DNA from: a virus
Lineage: Duplodnaviria; Heunggongvirae; Uroviricota; Caudoviricetes
Strand: one strand, 5' to 3'
Virus record (IMG/VR): IMGVR_UViG_2545824708_000010
Location: 1-12,219 of that record
Length of the DNA stretch: 12,219 nt
Shown: one piece after another, positions 3,779 through 8,901 of the stretch
Numbering within the stretch: the stretch's first letter is position 1
Layout: each line of letters starts with the position of its first letter
Program-made: the position numbers and the translations under genes
The notes under the pieces: generated by a model
What the model saw: the letters and a program-made list of their open reading frames with translations, nothing else
The model's database searches: none
Told to the model about the DNA's origin: nothing

Positions 3779-4057
3779 TCAGGCCTCGAAGAATTTGCCG
3801 TTCTTCGGGGCTTTTTCTTTTGTCAGCATTCTGGCTACTTTCTTAGCCAGTTCCGCCAACTCCTCGTCTTCAACACCCCATTCAAGAACAGCCAGAAGCA
3901 TTCCCATTTTTGGGATGAAGCTGTCTTTCCATCGCGAAATTTGCGATTCATTAATTCCTAACGCGTCAGCAACCTTTCGCTGGCCACGTACAGCAATTCG
4001 ATTCAGGATGTTGCTTGTAATTGCATTCGCTTTCTTGCGAGTACTTGTAAGTTGCAT
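3779..4057 (-). CDS. cII: CII transcriptional activator
   Basis: 92 aa. The segment [42 protein letters not shown] matches my recollection of lambda CII ([42 protein letters not shown]). The RBS/start context TTAAGGAAATACTTACATATG also matches recalled lambda. Confidence 0.9.
3784..3821 (+). terminator. Plus-strand intrinsic terminator inside the 3' end of cII (oop-like antisense RNA terminator)
   Basis: Stem CCTCGAAGAA/TTCTTCGGGG (3784-3793 and 3801-3810, one G-U pair), 7-nt loop, then CTTTTTCTTTT. It is antisense to the cII C-terminal codons, as for lambda oop RNA. Confidence 0.5.
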
Positions 4058-4066: not shown

Positions 4067-4116
4067 TTTCCTTAACTAATAAGAAGTTATGCGCATCAAC
4101 TTATGCGCGTTGTATT

Positions 4117-4160
4117 CCCGCATTTCGGCGGGAATGAGGACCATGACTGTTAAAGAGCGG
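4117..4160 (-). promoter_or_regulatory. nutR (boxA plus boxB) between cro and cII
   Basis: On the minus strand: boxA CGCTCTTTAACA (plus 4149-4160), then a boxB hairpin UCCCGC-CGAAAU-GCGGGA (plus 4117-4132). The same boxA/boxB recurs on the plus strand downstream of PL. Confidence 0.6.
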
Positions 4161-4165
4161 TGTTA

Positions 4166-4360
4166 CTATTTGTTTTTCTTGTTGCTTGGGAAAGGACGAA
4201 CTTCCTCTCCAATCACACTGCCATCAGGCTTTACCGTAACCATGATGTTACGGCCTGCCAGAATGGCCTTGCTGATAGCGCACTGGATTACACCAAAGTC
4301 ACTGGCTGCTTTAGCCTGTCCATGGATTTTGGCGTAATCGGCAAGTGTCATTCGAATCAT
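4166..4360 (-). CDS. cro: Cro repressor
   Basis: The segment [62 protein letters not shown] closely matches recalled lambda Cro ([59 protein letters not shown]). The ATG at 4360 has a GGAG ribosome-binding site; the ORF-track start at 4366 is a GTG. Confidence 0.9.
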
Positions 4361-4385
4361 ATGCACTCTCCGTTATTAACCATGA

Positions 4386-4466
4386 ACAAAGAATACTACA
4401 GGTATTCAAAGCAATCAATACTCAGGGTATTTTTAGTTTAAGTACCTTAGCTATTAGAATTAAGCT
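4386..4466. promoter_or_regulatory. OR operator region with divergent PR (toward cro) and PRM (toward cI)
   Basis: Two palindromic operators: GAATAC-TACAG-GTATTC (4391-4407) and AATAC-TCAGG-GTATT (4418-4432), with a possible degenerate third near 4437-4454. PR candidate on the minus strand: -35 TTGATT (plus 4413-4418), 17 bp, -10 TATTCT (plus 4390-4395). PRM candidate -10 TAGAAT (4455-4460) ends 6 nt before the cI ATG, implying a leaderless cI mRNA as in lambda. Confidence 0.65.
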
Positions 4467-5183
4467 ATGGAAAATAAAAAATCACTGACGACAGAACAGC
4501 TGGAAGACGCTAAGCGGCTTAAGGCTTTGTATGAGTCAAAAAAGAAAGAATTGGGAATAACCCAATACTCAATCGCTGATGAACTGGGTATCACCCAAGG
4601 AGCGGTAGGGCATTATCTTAATGGCAGAAATGCGCTAAACGTTGAGGTTGCATCTGGTTTTGCACGATTGTTGCAAGTCTCAATTGCTGATTTTAGCCAG
4701 TCAATTGCTGCCAAGGTTGCAGAACAGGCAGAAAGCCTTAAGAGCGATGCCAACGTAAGGTATGCAGGGGAATACAGAGCAGGAAAGAGGTATCCGGTGT
4801 TAAGCAGTATCCAGGCTGGCTCGTGGTGTGAAGCATGCGAACCATACACCATTAAAGACATAGATGTTTGGCTTGAGTCTGACGCGCATATTCAAGGTAA
4901 TGCGTTCTGGCTTAAAGTGGAAGGTGATTCAATGACGGCACCGGTTGGGTTAAGCATTCCAGAGGGAACATTCGTTCTTTTCGATACCGGAAGGGAGGCG
5001 ATCAACGGCAGCTTGGTCATAGCAAAACTTTCTGACTCTAACGAAGCAACATTCAAGAAGCTGATAATCGACGGCGGAAATAAATACCTCAAGGGACTTA
5101 ATCCTGCATGGCCTCTCGTGCCAATCAATGGAAACTGCAAGATTATAGGCGTTGCAATTGAGACAAAACTAAGGCTGGTTTGA
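4467..5183 (+). CDS. cI: CI-type prophage repressor (HTH DNA-binding domain plus S24 LexA-like autopeptidase domain)
   Basis: N-terminus LTTEQLEDAKRLKALYESKKKELGITQYSIADELGITQGAVGHYLNG resembles lambda CI. The C-terminal domain has Ala-Gly (YAGEY), the GDSM serine and the FKKL lysine, and resembles the recalled P22 C2 C-terminus (FWL.V.GDSMTAP.GLSIPEG...NEATFKKL...NGNCKIIGV). Confidence 0.93.
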   Translation: MENKKSLTTEQLEDAKRLKALYESKKKELGITQYSIADELGITQGAVGHYLNGRNALNVEVASGFARLLQVSIADFSQSIAAKVAEQAESLKSDANVRYAGEYRAGKRYPVLSSIQAGSWCEACEPYTIKDIDVWLESDAHIQGNAFWLKVEGDSMTAPVGLSIPEGTFVLFDTGREAINGSLVIAKLSDSNEATFKKLIIDGGNKYLKGLNPAWPLVPINGNCKIIGVAIETKLRLV

Positions 5184-5200
5184 TCACGCAAGGGGCGATT

Positions 5201-5569
5201 ATGGTTGGAACCGCTATAGCAAGCTTTTTTGGGATGTTGGCAATCTCGACAATTTACGGCTTAGCGCATGCTTTTATTGCGAAATCTCTATCAGAAAAAA
5301 TAAGCCAGGCTTGGGCGCATAGATCAGCTCGTTTCATGATTCTAGTGATCATAGCAATACAAGGGATATCTGCATTTATCCTCTATGGTTCAAGCTTATA
5401 CCTGTTGTATCAAGGCGCGACATTTACGCCTTACACCAGTGATTACGGAACTCTATACGATGGTAGTGAAGACATCTCTATGGCTTGGATTGTCTTTGGT
5501 TTATCTATGGCCGTGTCTGTTGTAGCAGATATCATTAAGGTAATTCTCGTCTTAACCTTCGCTGACTAA
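5201..5569 (+). CDS. Small multi-pass membrane protein cotranscribed with cI (rex/sie position)
   Basis: ATG at 5201 with an AGGGG ribosome-binding site, 18 bp after the cI stop. 122 aa with 3-4 hydrophobic segments (AIASFFGMLAISTIYGLAHAFIA, FMILVIIAIQGISAFILYG, MAWIVFGLSMAVSVVADIIKVILVLTF). The ORF-track start at 5180 is a TTG overlapping the cI stop. Confidence 0.6.
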   Translation: MVGTAIASFFGMLAISTIYGLAHAFIAKSLSEKISQAWAHRSARFMILVIIAIQGISAFILYGSSLYLLYQGATFTPYTSDYGTLYDGSEDISMAWIVFGLSMAVSVVADIIKVILVLTFAD

Positions 5570-5655
5570 CCTATAATCCCGGCAGCAATAGCTATCGGGA
5601 TCCACTTCACATATCCCGCATAAAAAGCACTGAACAAGCAGACACCGAAAAAATA

Positions 5656-5745
5656 AATATCCTTTGTATTCATTTGCTTATCATTATTTCATCAAAAATA
5701 AATACCTTGGGTATTTACACAATAAAATACCTACAGTATTCTTTA
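5656..5745 (+). promoter_or_regulatory. OL operators and PL promoter
   Basis: Operators with the same half-sites as OR: AATAC-CTTGG-GTATT (5701-5715), AATAC-CTACA-GTATT (5727-5741), and a degenerate AATAT-CCTTT-GTATT (about 5657-5671). PL candidate: -35 TTTACA (5714-5719), 17 bp, -10 TATTCT (5737-5742). Confidence 0.65.
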
Positions 5746-5788
5746 GCCATCAGCAGGACGCTGGAAGCCAAACGGAACAGATTGGCAG

Positions 5789-5828
5789 GCTCTTTAACAT
5801 TGATGGGATTGTCCCGCCGAAATGCGGG
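5789..5828 (+). promoter_or_regulatory. nutL (boxA plus boxB)
   Basis: GCTCTTTAACA (5789-5799), 13 nt, then CCCGCCGAAATGCGGG (5813-5828). This is the same boxA/boxB RNA sequence as the nutR site on the opposite strand, about 45 nt downstream of the PL -10. Confidence 0.65.
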
Positions 5829-6273
5829 AACTGAGTTTAACCAAACAGGAGGTGCCGTAATGGTGCACTAACGCGGTTAGACCGCAGCCGAAAGGAAATG
5901 CAGCAGTAATGATGCTGCCCTGAGTCGCCATTGAGCGAGCCTGCTTAGCATCGGGTTAGGGTCAATATATTAAAAGTAGCTCCGGTAAAGCAGCGCGAAT
6001 GCCAGACGCGCACCGGTTATCAGCGGCGATGAAGCGGCAGAGACTCAAGGGCATGAGCGCGCTCACTGCGAGAGTGTGAGTCAAAGAGTAGTTGGCTTTG
6101 GGATTGGATGAATGAGCAGGCTGATGCTCGACCAATGTATAAACAGCGCTCATGGCAAGCAGTAACCAATCTGCGCCTCAAGACAGCGTCACTGGTAGTG
6201 CGGGCGCTCTAACCAGTAAGCCGGAATTCAGCACCGGCCATCCAATCACCAAAGTCAATCATCGGAGGTCAAC

Positions 6274-6546
6274 ATGACAGTAGTCATTACATATCTGGCT
6301 GACGATAACGCCAGAAATCGCCGCAGAGCACGCAGACAGGCTCAACGTGAACAGGCAATGCAAGAACAGCGACTGGCGCGAAAAATTGCGCTAAAGCTCT
6401 CTGGTTGCGTCAGAGCAGACAAAGCAGCATCACTCGGAAGCCTTCGCTGCAAGAAGGCAGATGAATGCAGTGGAAGTATTTGCCTGCCAAACGTAGCCAT
6501 TTACGCGGCAGGCTACCGGAAATCAAAACAACTGACGGCGAGGTAA
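6274..6546 (+). CDS. N: N-like transcription antitermination protein
   Basis: 90 aa. First gene downstream of PL/nutL, with a GGAGG ribosome-binding site. N-terminal arginine-rich motif NARNRRRARRQAQREQA, as in lambdoid N proteins. Confidence 0.75.
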   Translation: MTVVITYLADDNARNRRRARRQAQREQAMQEQRLARKIALKLSGCVRADKAASLGSLRCKKADECSGSICLPNVAIYAAGYRKSKQLTAR

Positions 6547-7163: not shown

Positions 7164-7256
7164 GCGCCTATAGCAGATTTACGAGTCTGCTATGTGAGCA
7201 ATGTCGCTCGTAACTAAACAGGAGCCGACTTGTTCTGATTATTGGAAATCTTCTTT

Positions 7257-7281
7257 GCCCTCCAGTGTGAGGGCCTTTTTA
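7257..7281 (+). terminator. Intrinsic terminator (tL-like) in the early-left operon
   Basis: Stem GCCCTC/GAGGGC (7257-7262 and 7269-7274), 6-nt loop, followed by CTTTTTAT. Confidence 0.55.
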
Positions 7282-7346
7282 TATGCATACCAATAACGCT
7301 TCACTCGAGGCGTTTTCGTTATGCAATCAAACAGAAGGAGCATCCT

Positions 7347-7517
7347 ATGCAACAGTTCGCTATTGCAGGGGCGGCATCGGTTCGCCCTTTCAACCCGATT
7401 TTATCGGTACAGCATTCACGAAAAAATATTTTAACCGGAGCAGACTTTAAACAACCAAGAATGAAAAGCTTGCTCGAAAAGCTTTGGGATATTTTGAAAC
7501 AACAAGGCCGTCCATGA
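7347..7517 (+). CDS. cIII: CIII-like small protein (56 aa; candidate FtsH inhibitor that stabilises CII)
   Basis: Strong AAGGAG ribosome-binding site 6 nt upstream. N-terminus MQQFAIAGAA and SLLEKLWDILKQQGRP resemble recalled lambda CIII (MQYAIAGWPVAG...SLLERITRKLRDGWKRLIDILNQPG). Position after N fits. The ORF-track start at 7242 is judged to be upstream read-through. Confidence 0.5.
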   Translation: MQQFAIAGAASVRPFNPILSVQHSRKNILTGADFKQPRMKSLLEKLWDILKQQGRP

Positions 7518-7543
7518 GTTTTACCAATAAGGGGAGCAAGTAA

Positions 7544-8635
7544 ATGGCTATTCAGACTAAAACATTGCAGGTACGCGTCAAAGACCGCCACGCCGCCTTG
7601 TTGCGTCAGATGGCCTTTGAAGTGAACCAAGTTTTTAACTTTATCAATGAAATGACTGCGACTGAATACAGCACTGTCAGCGAATACGGACCAAAACAAA
7701 GAGTTTGGTTAACTGAATTTGACGTAGATAAACGCATTGCTGGTATTCAAAAGGAGCGCGGATACCACATACAAGCAGCTACTTGTCAGGAAATCTCAAA
7801 ACATCACGCTAAAGCGCGTAAACAGTTTAAACGCAGTAAGCTGCGCTGGCGTAAAAGTGGCGGTGCTGGGCGTAGTCTTGGTTGGGTTCCGTTCAAAGGT
7901 GCTCAAGTGAAATGGGTAAACGGCTGCATCAAGTTTGCCGGGCACTATTTCAAAGTGTGGGATAGCTATGGATTAAATGGCTTTAAATTCCGTGCTGGTA
8001 ACTTTGCAGAAGATGCGCGCGGTCGCTGGTATTTCAATGTTGCAGTTGAATACGAATGCGAACCAACTAAAGGCACTGCCGACGTGGGTATCGATCTTGG
8101 TCTGAAAGACATTGCCACCACTTCGGATGGTGAAAAACTTCCTGCTAAACGTTGGTATCGTGAATTAGAAGGCAAATTAAAAATTGCTCAACGTGCCCAT
8201 AATAAAAAACGTGTTAGAGCTATCCACGCAAAAATCAAAAATCGCCGTAAAGATGCACACCATAAGTTTTCTACGGCGCTGGTTAATAAATACGCCGCTA
8301 TTTTTGTAGGCGACGTAAGCAGTAAAAAGTTATCAAAAACAAATTTGGCAAAAAGTATCTACGACGCCGGCTGGTGTCAGCTAAAAAATCAGATTCAGTA
8401 TAAAGCGATTGCGCGGAGTGTGGTTTTTGAGGTCGTAGATGAAGCGTACACCACCCAGACTTGCTCGTGCTGCGGAGCTATTAGCTGCAGTAGTCCGAAG
8501 GGTAGGGTAGGCCTTGGAATAAGAGAATGGATCTGCGTGGAATGTGGTGAACTCCACGACCGCGACGTAAACGCGGCAAAGAACATTCTCGCGGCGGGAC
8601 ATCGCCGTCTCGAAGGAGGAATCCACGCCCTTTAG
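7544..8635 (+). CDS. tnpB: TnpB-family protein (IS200/IS605 OrfB-type RNA-guided nuclease fold)
   Basis: 363 aa with a GGGGAG ribosome-binding site. RuvC-I VGIDLGLKDIATTSDG; an acidic residue in IFVGDVSS at the RuvC-II position; C4 zinc finger CSCCG...CVECG; RuvC-III HDRDVNAAKNI. Confidence 0.9.
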   Translation: MAIQTKTLQVRVKDRHAALLRQMAFEVNQVFNFINEMTATEYSTVSEYGPKQRVWLTEFDVDKRIAGIQKERGYHIQAATCQEISKHHAKARKQFKRSKLRWRKSGGAGRSLGWVPFKGAQVKWVNGCIKFAGHYFKVWDSYGLNGFKFRAGNFAEDARGRWYFNVAVEYECEPTKGTADVGIDLGLKDIATTSDGEKLPAKRWYRELEGKLKIAQRAHNKKRVRAIHAKIKNRRKDAHHKFSTALVNKYAAIFVGDVSSKKLSKTNLAKSIYDAGWCQLKNQIQYKAIARSVVFEVVDEAYTTQTCSCCGAISCSSPKGRVGLGIREWICVECGELHDRDVNAAKNILAAGHRRLEGGIHAL

Positions 8636-8643
8636 GGCGTGGA
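8622..8643 (+). other. Perfect hairpin at the tnpB stop codon (candidate right-end or guide-RNA scaffold element)
   Basis: TCCACGCCC-TTTA-GGGCGTGGA, a 9-bp perfect stem around a 4-nt loop that contains the TAG stop. Confidence 0.5.
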
Positions 8644-8901
8644 GGATGTCAAAGATAACTGGTCAGACAAAGAATTCATTCGTCAGATGAAAGAATTAAT
8701 CGGTAACGAAGGAGATATGCATGTCACTTGCAACCACAGTGAAGGAGAGCAAGTTACAGAGACGCATGTACACGCAGAAAGCTCTCTGGTATCGCCATAA
8801 TGGCGACCGCGAAGGAATGCGGGTATGCCTTAATTTGTCCCGAGTCGAAGTATTAAATCAGCGTTATTTCCTTGGGCCATGTCCATTCTGAGAACAATCA
8901 T

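Follow-up and report, generated by a model that had tools for sequence, protein, structure and literature searches.

The CI/Cro lysogeny switch of the HK620 type is already known, and its module, repressor and operators have been in GenBank since 2001. The HK620 paper is that of Clark et al. 2001 (J Mol Biol 311:657). The HK620 GenBank record (AF335538/NC_002730) annotates cI, cro, OR1-3, OL1-3, pR, pL, pRE and the nut sites; our literature search on HK620 Cro and its operators found nothing specific. Domain-level mosaicism of lambdoid repressors has been documented, e.g., for the epsilon34 repressor (PMC2629481). For Cro proteins, an "evolutionary code" has been published (PMC6649833) in which Gln H1 goes with A+2, Ala H3 goes with A+5, and Lys H6 goes with C+6.

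We compared these systems with the window, the whole stretch of 12,219 nucleotides analyzed here. Positions 4166-5742 very probably constitute the lysis/lysogeny (immunity) module of a lambdoid prophage with HK620-type immunity. Nucleotide identity to the HK620 immunity region (AF335538) was 99.1% over 1701 bp, and the arrangement cro-OR-cI-hkaS-OL was found at 99.1-99.4% nucleotide identity over 1.7 kb in HK620, mEpX2, HF4s, HK630, and others. HK140, phi296/phi367 and some Stx2c phages carry the same module as well, as do 146 of 5426 complete E. coli genomes (about 2.7%). OR1-3, OL1-2, pR, and pL of the HK620 record coincide with features detected here (Table 1). HK620 differs in covering only 55% of the window, which as a whole is a different mosaic. 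The initial annotation expected AATAC-N5-GTATT to define the immunity group; the specificity is not a new one, in view of the near-identity of the whole module to HK620 (99.1%), where the operators are already annotated. With the module in GenBank since 2001 and lambdoid repressor mosaicism documented, the locus carries little weight as a discovery. It does mark one immunity type, including some Stx phages, and could aid prophage typing. An Rfam scan of the whole window gave no matches.

Table 1. Predicted features in and next to the immunity module (window positions; PWM, score of the operator weight matrix).
Feature	Position	Strand	Description	Basis
cro	4166..4360	-	64 aa, lambda-Cro family, recognition helix Q-C-A-I-S-K	Pfam, HK620 annotation
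PR	4390..4418	-	-10 TATTCT (4390-4395), -35 TTGATT (4413-4418), 17-bp spacer, towards cro	read from sequence
OR1	4391..4407		GAATACtacagGTATTC; perfect 6-bp arms; overlaps PR -10	motif search, HK620 annotation, PWM 21.3
OR2	4416..4432		CAATACtcaggGTATTT; overlaps PR -35; centre ~-43 from cI ATG	motif search, HK620 annotation, PWM 21.7
putative PRM	4432..4460	+	-35 TTTAGT (4432-4437), -10 TAGAAT (4455-4460)	read from sequence
OR3	4440..4456		AAGTACcttagCTATTA; degenerate, between PRM -35 and -10	HK620 annotation, PWM 10.6 (window rank 6)
cI	4467..5183	+	238 aa; lambda-type HTH N-domain (about 1-92), linker, S24 autopeptidase C-domain	
hkaS	5201..5569	+	122-aa predicted membrane protein, downstream of cI, position of lambda rex	HK620 annotation
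candidate distal OL3	5655..5671		AAATATcctttGTATTC; 1 core mismatch; centre 45 bp from OL2	motif search, PWM 14.2 (rank 5)
OL2	5700..5716		AAATACcttggGTATTT; overlaps PL -35	motif search, HK620 annotation, PWM 21.5
PL	5714..5742	+	TTTACA-17-TATTCT, towards nutL and N	promoter scan
OL1	5725..5741		AAATACctacaGTATTC; overlaps PL -10	motif search, HK620 annotation, PWM 20.4
N	6274-6546			Pfam N_peptide

To score the operators, we searched the 12.2-kb window for AATACNNNNNGTATT with up to one mismatch. Five matches were obtained vs. 0.32 expected by chance, and none of 200 shuffles reached five. Four matches are exact (4392-4406, 4417-4431, 5701-5715, and 5726-5740), the fifth (5656-5670) contains one mismatch, and all five are located either between cro and cI or beyond the cI operon, shortly before the N gene. 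The AATAC-N5-GTATT palindromes that had been noticed in OR and OL were thus recovered, only in the control regions flanking cI, and the description of OL as two clear sites plus one degenerate site was accurate. For OR, the two clear sites are exact and their centres lie 25 bp apart, but a degenerate third site had been missed. The core of this OR3 (AGTACcttagCTATT) has two mismatches and is not significant by sequence alone, as about five two-mismatch matches are expected. It is supported by its position, 24 bp from OR2 and overlapping the PRM -10, and by homology with the OR3 of relatives (family sequence AATAGnnnnnGTATT), which is placed alike. Divergent cI and cro genes with a tripartite OR overlapping PR and PRM are therefore present, OR3 being weak. 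A position weight matrix built only from other loci was then scored across the window; the six sites of Table 1 ranked ahead of every other position, the next best scoring 4.0 (note that training sites were pre-selected at no more than one mismatch to the motif, which inflates the information content of the core). Operator motifs of lambda, 434, and P22 were absent from OR and OL, and sites of the lambda type (TATCACCGC) were not found there even at three mismatches.

The promoter scan detected PL only, and the weak PR and PRM hexamers were assigned by eye and from the GenBank record. PR matches 8 of 12 consensus positions, below the scan threshold, and lies inside the HK620 pR feature (window 4383-4418); the pL feature of HK620 covers positions 5714-5749. 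The ATG at 4467 is not preceded by a Shine-Dalgarno sequence, so that cI, like its lambda counterpart, is probably translated from a leaderless mRNA. A GTATT plus AGAAT/ACAAT element followed by ATG 6-8 nt later was kept in 13 diverged relatives.

A tripartite OL over PL, upstream of nutL and N, is also present, with its third site at a larger offset from OL2 than in lambda (45 bp vs. about 20-24 bp). The site at 5655-5671 looks like a real OL3, because it has a good matrix score and the same 45-bp offset is seen in four diverged relatives. In these relatives (L050, L064, L088, and L014) the 25+45-bp spacing is kept and the spacer sequences differ. On the DNA helix, a spacing of 45 bp is in phase with one of 24 bp; the role of the site is uncertain. 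The OL3 position given in the HK620 record (window 5678-5694) does not match the motif and scored -26 with the matrix (rank 2654). The HK620 OL3 annotation is likely to need correction.

The repressor protein is identical to mEpX2 CI (238/238 residues) and differs from HK620 CI at one residue (237/238). Uniform similarity to a single known repressor, which had been named as an argument against a mosaic, is therefore what the mEpX2 comparison gives (100% in both halves). In domain-wise alignments the proposed lambda-CI-like N-terminal HTH was borne out: residues 27-76 match Pfam HTH_3 (E 8e-10), residues 3-90 match the lambda repressor N-domain 1LMB (E 7e-23), and the N-domain shares 53% identity with lambda CI (E 1e-29), with no significant match to P22 C2 (E 1.4). 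The C-domain (Peptidase_S24, residues 110-231, E 5e-24) had been called P22-C2-like. This is correct insofar as its identity to P22 C2 (55%) exceeds that to lambda CI (40%), but 434-type repressors (70%) and Erwinia phage Midgardsormr38 (83%) are closer still. The full-length protein matches lambda 3BDN (E 3e-52), and Ala117-Gly118, Ser155, and Lys197 align with lambda Ala111-Gly112, Ser149, and Lys192 in the QAG, GDSMTAP, and TFKKL motifs. In the alignment, considered in the light of the lambda CI-operator structure, equivalents of lambda Gln33, Gln44, Asn52, Asn55, and Lys4 are kept. Ser45 is replaced by Gly and Ala49 by His, and the operator is unlike that of lambda at positions 3-4.

The lambda switch shares with this locus its gene order, divergent promoters, tripartite 17-bp operators with a central base pair, N-terminal arm, Cro family, S24 Ala-Gly/Ser/Lys motifs, and probably a leaderless cI. 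It differs in the half-site (TATCAC vs. nAATAC here), in recognition-helix residues 45, 46, and 49-51, and in carrying rexA/rexB where hkaS stands here; OL and OR are 1.3 kb apart in the present module. The 434-type repressors (HK446, Sf6) and P22 C2 share the S24 C-domain and linker and fall with the present CI in one C-domain clade without lambda CI. Their N-domains belong to the short 434/P22 class, 434 matching only 32 aa of the HTH, and their operators (ACAA-N6-TTGT for 434; 18-bp sites for P22) are different and absent here. The window Cro matches the full 59-position model of Pfam PF09048 (E 3.6e-26). Its Q-C-A-I-S-K helix and the half-site n-A-A-T-A-C fit all three pairings of the Cro code.

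A scan of viral contigs yielded at least 119 loci with tandem AATAC-N5-GTATT sites, 74 of which carry a repressor with a lambda-type N-domain (45 distinct sequences). The recognition helix is conserved as [IV][TS]QG[AG]VGHY[LM]NGR[NI]. The motif in other phages flanks homologous repressors, including those of phages from another genus. It cannot serve as the mark of one narrow immunity group, since the repressors that share it, along with the helix QG[AG]VGHY[LM]NGR, number at least 45 distinct sequences, and their N-domain identity goes as low as 57%. Erwinia phage vB_EhrS_49 (NC_048197), for example, encodes a full-length 238-aa homologue (68% identity in the N-domain, 67% in the C-domain) whose recognition helix is identical. 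Its Cro is of the lambda family, and OR and OL have three AATAC-N5-GTATT sites each. This phage differs in host genus, in operator spacers and flanks, in a proximal OL3 (21 bp from OL2), and in a TPR protein in place of hkaS. One could tentatively propose that the helix QG[AG]VGHY[LM]NGR together with AATAC-N5-GTATT forms a single super-specificity, shared by dozens of repressors from phages of E. coli, Erwinia, and further Enterobacterales, with N-domains at least 57% identical and interchangeable S24 C-domains, and that the distal OL3 is a conserved alternative layout missed by the HK620 annotation. We consider this broad proposal possible but rather doubtful. If it is true, phages counted as different could be cross-immune or disturb each other's switches. 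The operator/helix pair across a diverged family also offers a data set for repressor divergence at constant specificity and for prediction of cross-immunity.

The palindromes might be explained as chance A+T-rich promoter sequence or as sites for another factor. The motif is indeed rich in A+T and lies over promoter hexamers, and some viral contigs have tandem motifs without a recognizable repressor. We consider this explanation extremely unlikely, because all five matches (vs. 0.32 expected) are in OR or OL, three sites at 24-25-bp spacing cover PR and PRM in a lambda-like layout, the half-site fits the published Cro code, and in at least 45 distinct repressors the conserved recognition helix goes with this motif while the spacer varies. 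The sequence evidence supports the assignment of the palindromes as the OR and OL operators of the CI/Cro switch. A separate question is the origin of the uneven similarity of the two CI domains. A fairly recent recombinant, with a lambda-like cI 5' half joined to a P22-c2-like 3' half in a new hybrid module, would account for the 53% N-domain identity to lambda CI without a P22 C2 match and for the 55% vs. 40% in the C-domain. Such an event is highly unlikely: at the DNA level the gene resembles lambda cI and P22 c2 only over stretches of 42-64 nt, closer C-domains exist in the 434-type repressors and Midgardsormr38, and the protein is that of mEpX2, one residue off HK620 CI. The combination of a lambda-type N-domain with a 434/P22-type C-domain is moreover common to dozens of diverged family members, such as the vB_EhrS_49 repressor, and therefore the fusion predates this lineage.

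It is also very unlikely that no recombination took place and that the domains simply evolved at different rates, the C-domain of lambda CI sitting on a long branch. Lambda, P22, and the present CI alone do fit one tree with a fast-evolving lambda C-domain, but with more taxa the N- and C-domain clades conflict at 99-100% bootstrap in neighbour-joining trees on short domains. The N-domain tree groups the window repressor (WIN) with L018 and L096, and the L096 C-domain is unrelated (21% identity). The C-domain tree groups L064 with Midgardsormr38, although the N-domain type of the latter differs. L096, L102, and L088 have N-domains 76-86% identical and an unrelated S24 C-domain at 21-24%, while the Midgardsormr38 and 434-type C-domains are close (70-83%) and their N-domains are of a different class. 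The nucleotide alignments break at the linker: DNA similarity to L096 stops at cI nucleotide 272, and similarity to Midgardsormr38 starts at nucleotide 325. HK620-type modules aside, relatives of either domain do not exceed about 76% nucleotide identity. We concluded that domain shuffling, as read from these alignments, is real, but old (no more than 76% DNA identity) and family-wide. The recombinant immunity module suggested in the initial annotation holds in that its domains have different affinities and conflicting trees, but a recent lambda x P22 hybrid it is not. The repressor is a member of a large family of Enterobacterales phages, whose lambda-type N-domain is conserved, always with AATAC-N5-GTATT, and has been joined at the linker (about residues 92-108) to one S24 C-domain after another.

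By analogy with lambda, we infer CI binding, cooperativity, activation, looping, and cleavage for this switch; cooperativity, PRM activation, and looping are suggested by the 25-bp site spacing and the OR2 centre at ~-43. CI dimers would bind the 17-bp nAATAC-N5-GTATTn sites through the lambda-type HTH (recognition helix QGAVGHYLNGRN) and the N-terminal arm. Binding at OR1 and OR2 would block PR and turn off cro, cII, O, and P, and binding at OL1 and OL2 would block PL and turn off N. CI at OR2, ~43 bp upstream of the cI start, would be placed to stimulate the weak PRM and the probably leaderless cI-hkaS transcript. OR3, which is weaker, and the distal OL3 would provide negative autoregulation, possibly by OL-OR looping over about 1.3 kb. 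DNA damage would be followed by RecA-stimulated self-cleavage at Ala117-Gly118, carried out by the dyad Ser155/Lys197; this would part the DNA-binding from the oligomerization domain and lead to prophage induction. The lambda-family Cro is expected to read the same sites and to shut down PRM.

A 35-aa ORF on the minus strand (5566-5673), considered as a possible CI-controlled gene, gave no family match; it was seen only in near-identical modules, with a stop codon in one copy. HkaS belongs to phrog_6534 (function listed as unknown) and has one sub-threshold Pfam match. Homologues of hkaS with 52-56% identity occupy the same position in the relatives L018 and L021.

The window is the early control region of a lambdoid prophage, running opposite to the standard lambda map, with ninB, a DnaB-like P gene and O on the minus strand. 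The region under study comprises OR (between cro and cI), cI, hkaS, and OL on the downstream side of hkaS, upstream of nutL and N. Across the entire stretch 4100-5800, identity to the immunity regions of phages HK620, mEpX2, HF4s, HK630, HK140, phi296/phi367 and some Stx2c phages was 99.1-99.4%. The encoded CI is identical to mEpX2 CI and differs from HK620 CI by a single residue change (A66T), and 146 of 5426 complete E. coli genomes carry the module (≥95% identity). The module is already known, already annotated and common; the novelty implied by the initial annotation did not hold, since the HK620 record AF335538 already lists cI, cro, hkaS, OR1-OR3, OL1-OL3, pR, pL, pRE, nutL/nutR and the tIMM terminator. 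HK620 spans only 55% of the window, which overall is a different mosaic.

Features of the immunity region and its surroundings (operators as 17-bp sites, 15-bp cores in brackets; PWM, position-weight matrix score)
Feature	Position	Strand	PWM	Remark
cII	3779-4057	-
nutR	~4115-4135	-		position of its boxB, nearly identical to that of nutL
cro	4166-4360	-
PR	4418-4390	-		TTGATT-17-TATTCT; by eye, agrees with GenBank feature
OR1	4391-4407 (4392-4406)		21.3	exact; in AF335538
OR2	4416-4432 (4417-4431)		21.7	exact; in AF335538
OR3	4440-4456		10.6	two core mismatches; in AF335538
cI	4467-5183	+
HTH_3	CI residues 27-76			Pfam
Peptidase_S24	CI residues 110-231			Pfam
hkaS	5201-5569	+		122 aa
35-aa ORF	5566-5673	-		putative
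OL3	5655-5671 (5656-5670)		14.2	putative; one mismatch
OL2	5700-5716 (5701-5715)		21.5	exact; in AF335538
PL	5714-5742			TTTACA-17-TATTCT; promoter scan
OL1	5725-5741 (5726-5740)		20.4	exact; in AF335538
nutL	~5789-5832			boxA GCTCTTTAACA, boxB hairpin CCCGCCGAAATGCGGG
N	6274-6546	+		antiterminator
TnpB-like ORF	7544-8635	+		363 aa

The AATAC-N5-GTATT palindromes first noticed from the sequence of OR and OL were confirmed. With up to one mismatch allowed, the window holds five matches to AATACNNNNNGTATT (expected number 0.32), all of them within OR or OL, and none of 200 dinucleotide-preserving shuffles gave five matches. Adding one flanking base per side gives 17-bp sites, and the inverted arms of OR1 (GAATACtacagGTATTC) are perfect over 6 bp. 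The initial annotation counted two sites in OR and overlooked a third (AAGTACcttagCTATTA). By sequence alone OR3 is not significant, with ∼5 two-mismatch matches expected in the window; it is supported because it lies 24 bp from OR2, between the putative PRM hexamers, at the same position as the better conserved OR3 of relatives (AATAGnnnnnGTATT). A matrix trained only on 19 of the tandem-site viral loci described below, with the window excluded, ranked all six sites above the next-best window position (4.0); outside the core it preferred C/T at position 7 and A/T-rich flanks, and the central bases carried zero information. Operator motifs of lambda, 434 and P22 were not found in OR or OL. The -10 of PR lies inside OR1 and its -35 inside OR2, while the -35 and -10 of PL overlap OL2 and OL1, respectively. 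This overlap, together with the comparative evidence, supports the palindromes as operators, most likely those of the CI/Cro switch. The centre of OR2 falls near -43, from where CI could activate PRM. TAGAAT (4455-4460) lies seven bases ahead of the cI ATG, which is preceded by no Shine-Dalgarno sequence. The right arm of OR3 (GTATT) followed by AGAAT/ACAAT, with an ATG 6-8 nt on, was kept in 13 of 13 relatives inspected, pointing to a cI mRNA that is leaderless, like that of lambda.

The placement of OL3 differs from the public record. AF335538 puts it at 7888-7904, or 5678-5694 in the window (TTATCATTATTTCATCA), a position that we rejected because it scored -26 with the matrix and ranked 2654 in the window. 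The OL site that the initial annotation called degenerate has one mismatch, and four diverged relatives (loci L050, L064, L088 and L014) keep the same layout, 25 bp from OL1 to OL2 and 45 bp from OL2 to OL3, with different intervening sequence. We therefore assign the putative OL3 to 5655-5671, and the GenBank position is probably an annotation error. In other family members OL3 is proximal, 21-30 bp from OL2, and the distal position is degenerate. As 45 bp exceeds 24 bp by two helical turns, the distal OL3 would lie on the helix face that a conventionally spaced neighbour occupies. A putative 35-aa hydrophobic ORF (MNTKDIYFFGVCLFSAFYAGYVKWIPIAIAAGIIG), convergent with cI-hkaS, begins with a start codon that falls within the distal OL3. 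It is annotated in phage HF4s only, had no PHROG match, and is present only in near-identical HK620-type modules, with an in-frame stop in one copy.

The repressor had been described as lambda-CI-like in its N-domain and P22-C2-like in its C-domain. CI Ala117-Gly118, Ser155 and Lys197 are the counterparts of Ala111-Gly112, Ser149 and Lys192 in lambda. In blastp comparisons of residues 1-93 and 108-238, lambda CI was 53% identical in the N-domain (E 1e-29) and 40% in the C-domain; P22 C2 gave no significant N-domain match and 55% in the C-domain. The description thus holds as far as it goes, although nearer C-domains than that of P22 C2 exist: the 434-type repressor (HK446) reached 70% (N-domain 34%, over 32 aa only) and that of Erwinia phage Midgardsormr38 83% (N-domain 40%, over 50 aa only). 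Lambda CI was the outlier among the compared C-domains. To tell recombination apart from uneven evolutionary rates, we built neighbour-joining trees of each domain apart (24 sequences, 200 bootstraps), and these were in strong conflict. The window grouped with loci L018 and L096 in the N-domain tree (99%) and with L018 and L030 in the C-domain tree (100%); the L030 N-domain groups elsewhere. L064 paired with Midgardsormr38 by C-domain (100%), the latter having a different class of N-domain, and the 434-type was nested among C-domains of repressors with lambda-type N-domains. The repressors of the IMG/VR contigs L096 (3437-4186), L102 and L088, which have the same operators, match the window CI at 76-86% identity in the N-domain; after approximately residue 93 this is fused to an S24 peptidase domain unrelated to that of the window (...GDSMWPRMQSGEFVVIEPG..., 21-24% identity). 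DNA similarity to L096 stops at cI nucleotide 272 and that to Midgardsormr38 starts at nucleotide 325, placing the exchanges in the linker, at approximately residues 91-109.

Lambda cI and P22 c2 share DNA stretches of only 42-64 nt with the window cI, and we rejected a recent lambda × P22 hybrid. Since nucleotide identity in the L096 and Midgardsormr38 relationships is at most ∼76%, the domain shuffling is real, but old and family-wide. The proposed recombinant immunity module is thus supported in its incongruent domain histories and not in its recency or its P22 label. Comparable intragenic mosaicism was described previously for the lambdoid repressor of phage epsilon34 (PMC2629481).

Aligned to lambda repressor, CI retains Lys4, Gln33, Gln44, Asn52 and Asn55; Ser45 is replaced by Gly and Ala49 by His. 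These seven positions have roles in the lambda CI-operator structure. Cro was assigned to the lambda Cro family (PF09048, E 3.6e-26) and has the recognition helix Q-C-A-I-S-K. The half-site n-A-A-T-A-C agrees with the Cro 'evolutionary code' pairing Gln H1 with A+2, Ala H3 with A+5 and Lys H6 with C+6 (PMC6649833). Base pairs 3-4 are T-C in lambda and A-T in the window, a change accompanied by Ser to Cys at H2 and Asn to Ser at H5.

A search of other phages found the same operators in Erwinia phage vB_EhrS_49, three in OR and three in OL, with diverged spacers and flanking DNA. Its 238-aa CI matches the window CI at 68% identity in the N-domain and 67% in the C-domain and has an identical recognition helix (ITQGAVGHYLNGRNALN); the phage also encodes a lambda-family Cro. 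Among viral contigs, at least 119 loci had two tandem AATAC-N5-GTATT sites; 74 of these encode a repressor with a lambda-type N-domain (45 distinct sequences, N-domain identity to the window down to 57%) and the helix [IV][TS]QG[AG]VGHY[LM]NGR[NI]. Most loci extending far enough have a lambda-family Cro (46-100% identity). This co-conservation, like the sequence features and homologies, is observed directly; the operator/recognition-helix pair is common to a large family of diverged repressors in which the C-domains are interchangeable. Our additions are small: this pair across the family, and an OL3 position that probably corrects the HK620 record. Eight matches, mostly ∼29 bp apart, in a 255-kb IMG/VR contig (L039, 1363-1602) had no CI/Cro homologue at the locus and are an unrelated tandem array containing the motif by chance.

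The switch most likely works like that of lambda, from which we infer binding, cooperativity, activation, looping and cleavage by homology. CI dimers on OR1/OR2 and OL1/OL2 would repress PR and PL, and CI at OR2 would activate PRM. The weak OR3 and distal OL3 may serve autoregulation, perhaps by looping over ∼1.3 kb. RecA-stimulated self-cleavage at Ala117-Gly118 would lead to prophage induction, and Cro would act on the same sites as CI.

The ∼530 nt that separate PL from the start codon of N (5743-6273) contain no annotated gene, only short unannotated ORFs, with nutL near the 5' end; no Rfam family matched there. The early-left (PL) operon also contains the TnpB-like ORF (Pfam OrfB_IS605 and a Cas12f1-like TNB domain). 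In related phages only the flanks of 7200-8900 were matched, in two pieces (spanning ∼570 bp in their records), so the segment looks like a ∼1.1-kb IS200/IS605-type insertion absent from sequenced relatives; the Rfam scan of the window gave no TnpB-associated RNA. HkaS is a predicted multi-pass membrane protein (phrog_6534); its gene, probably cotranscribed with cI, takes the place that rexAB has in lambda. Homologues (52-56%) occur at the same position in loci L018 and L021, and hkaS could be a candidate prophage-expressed exclusion gene.
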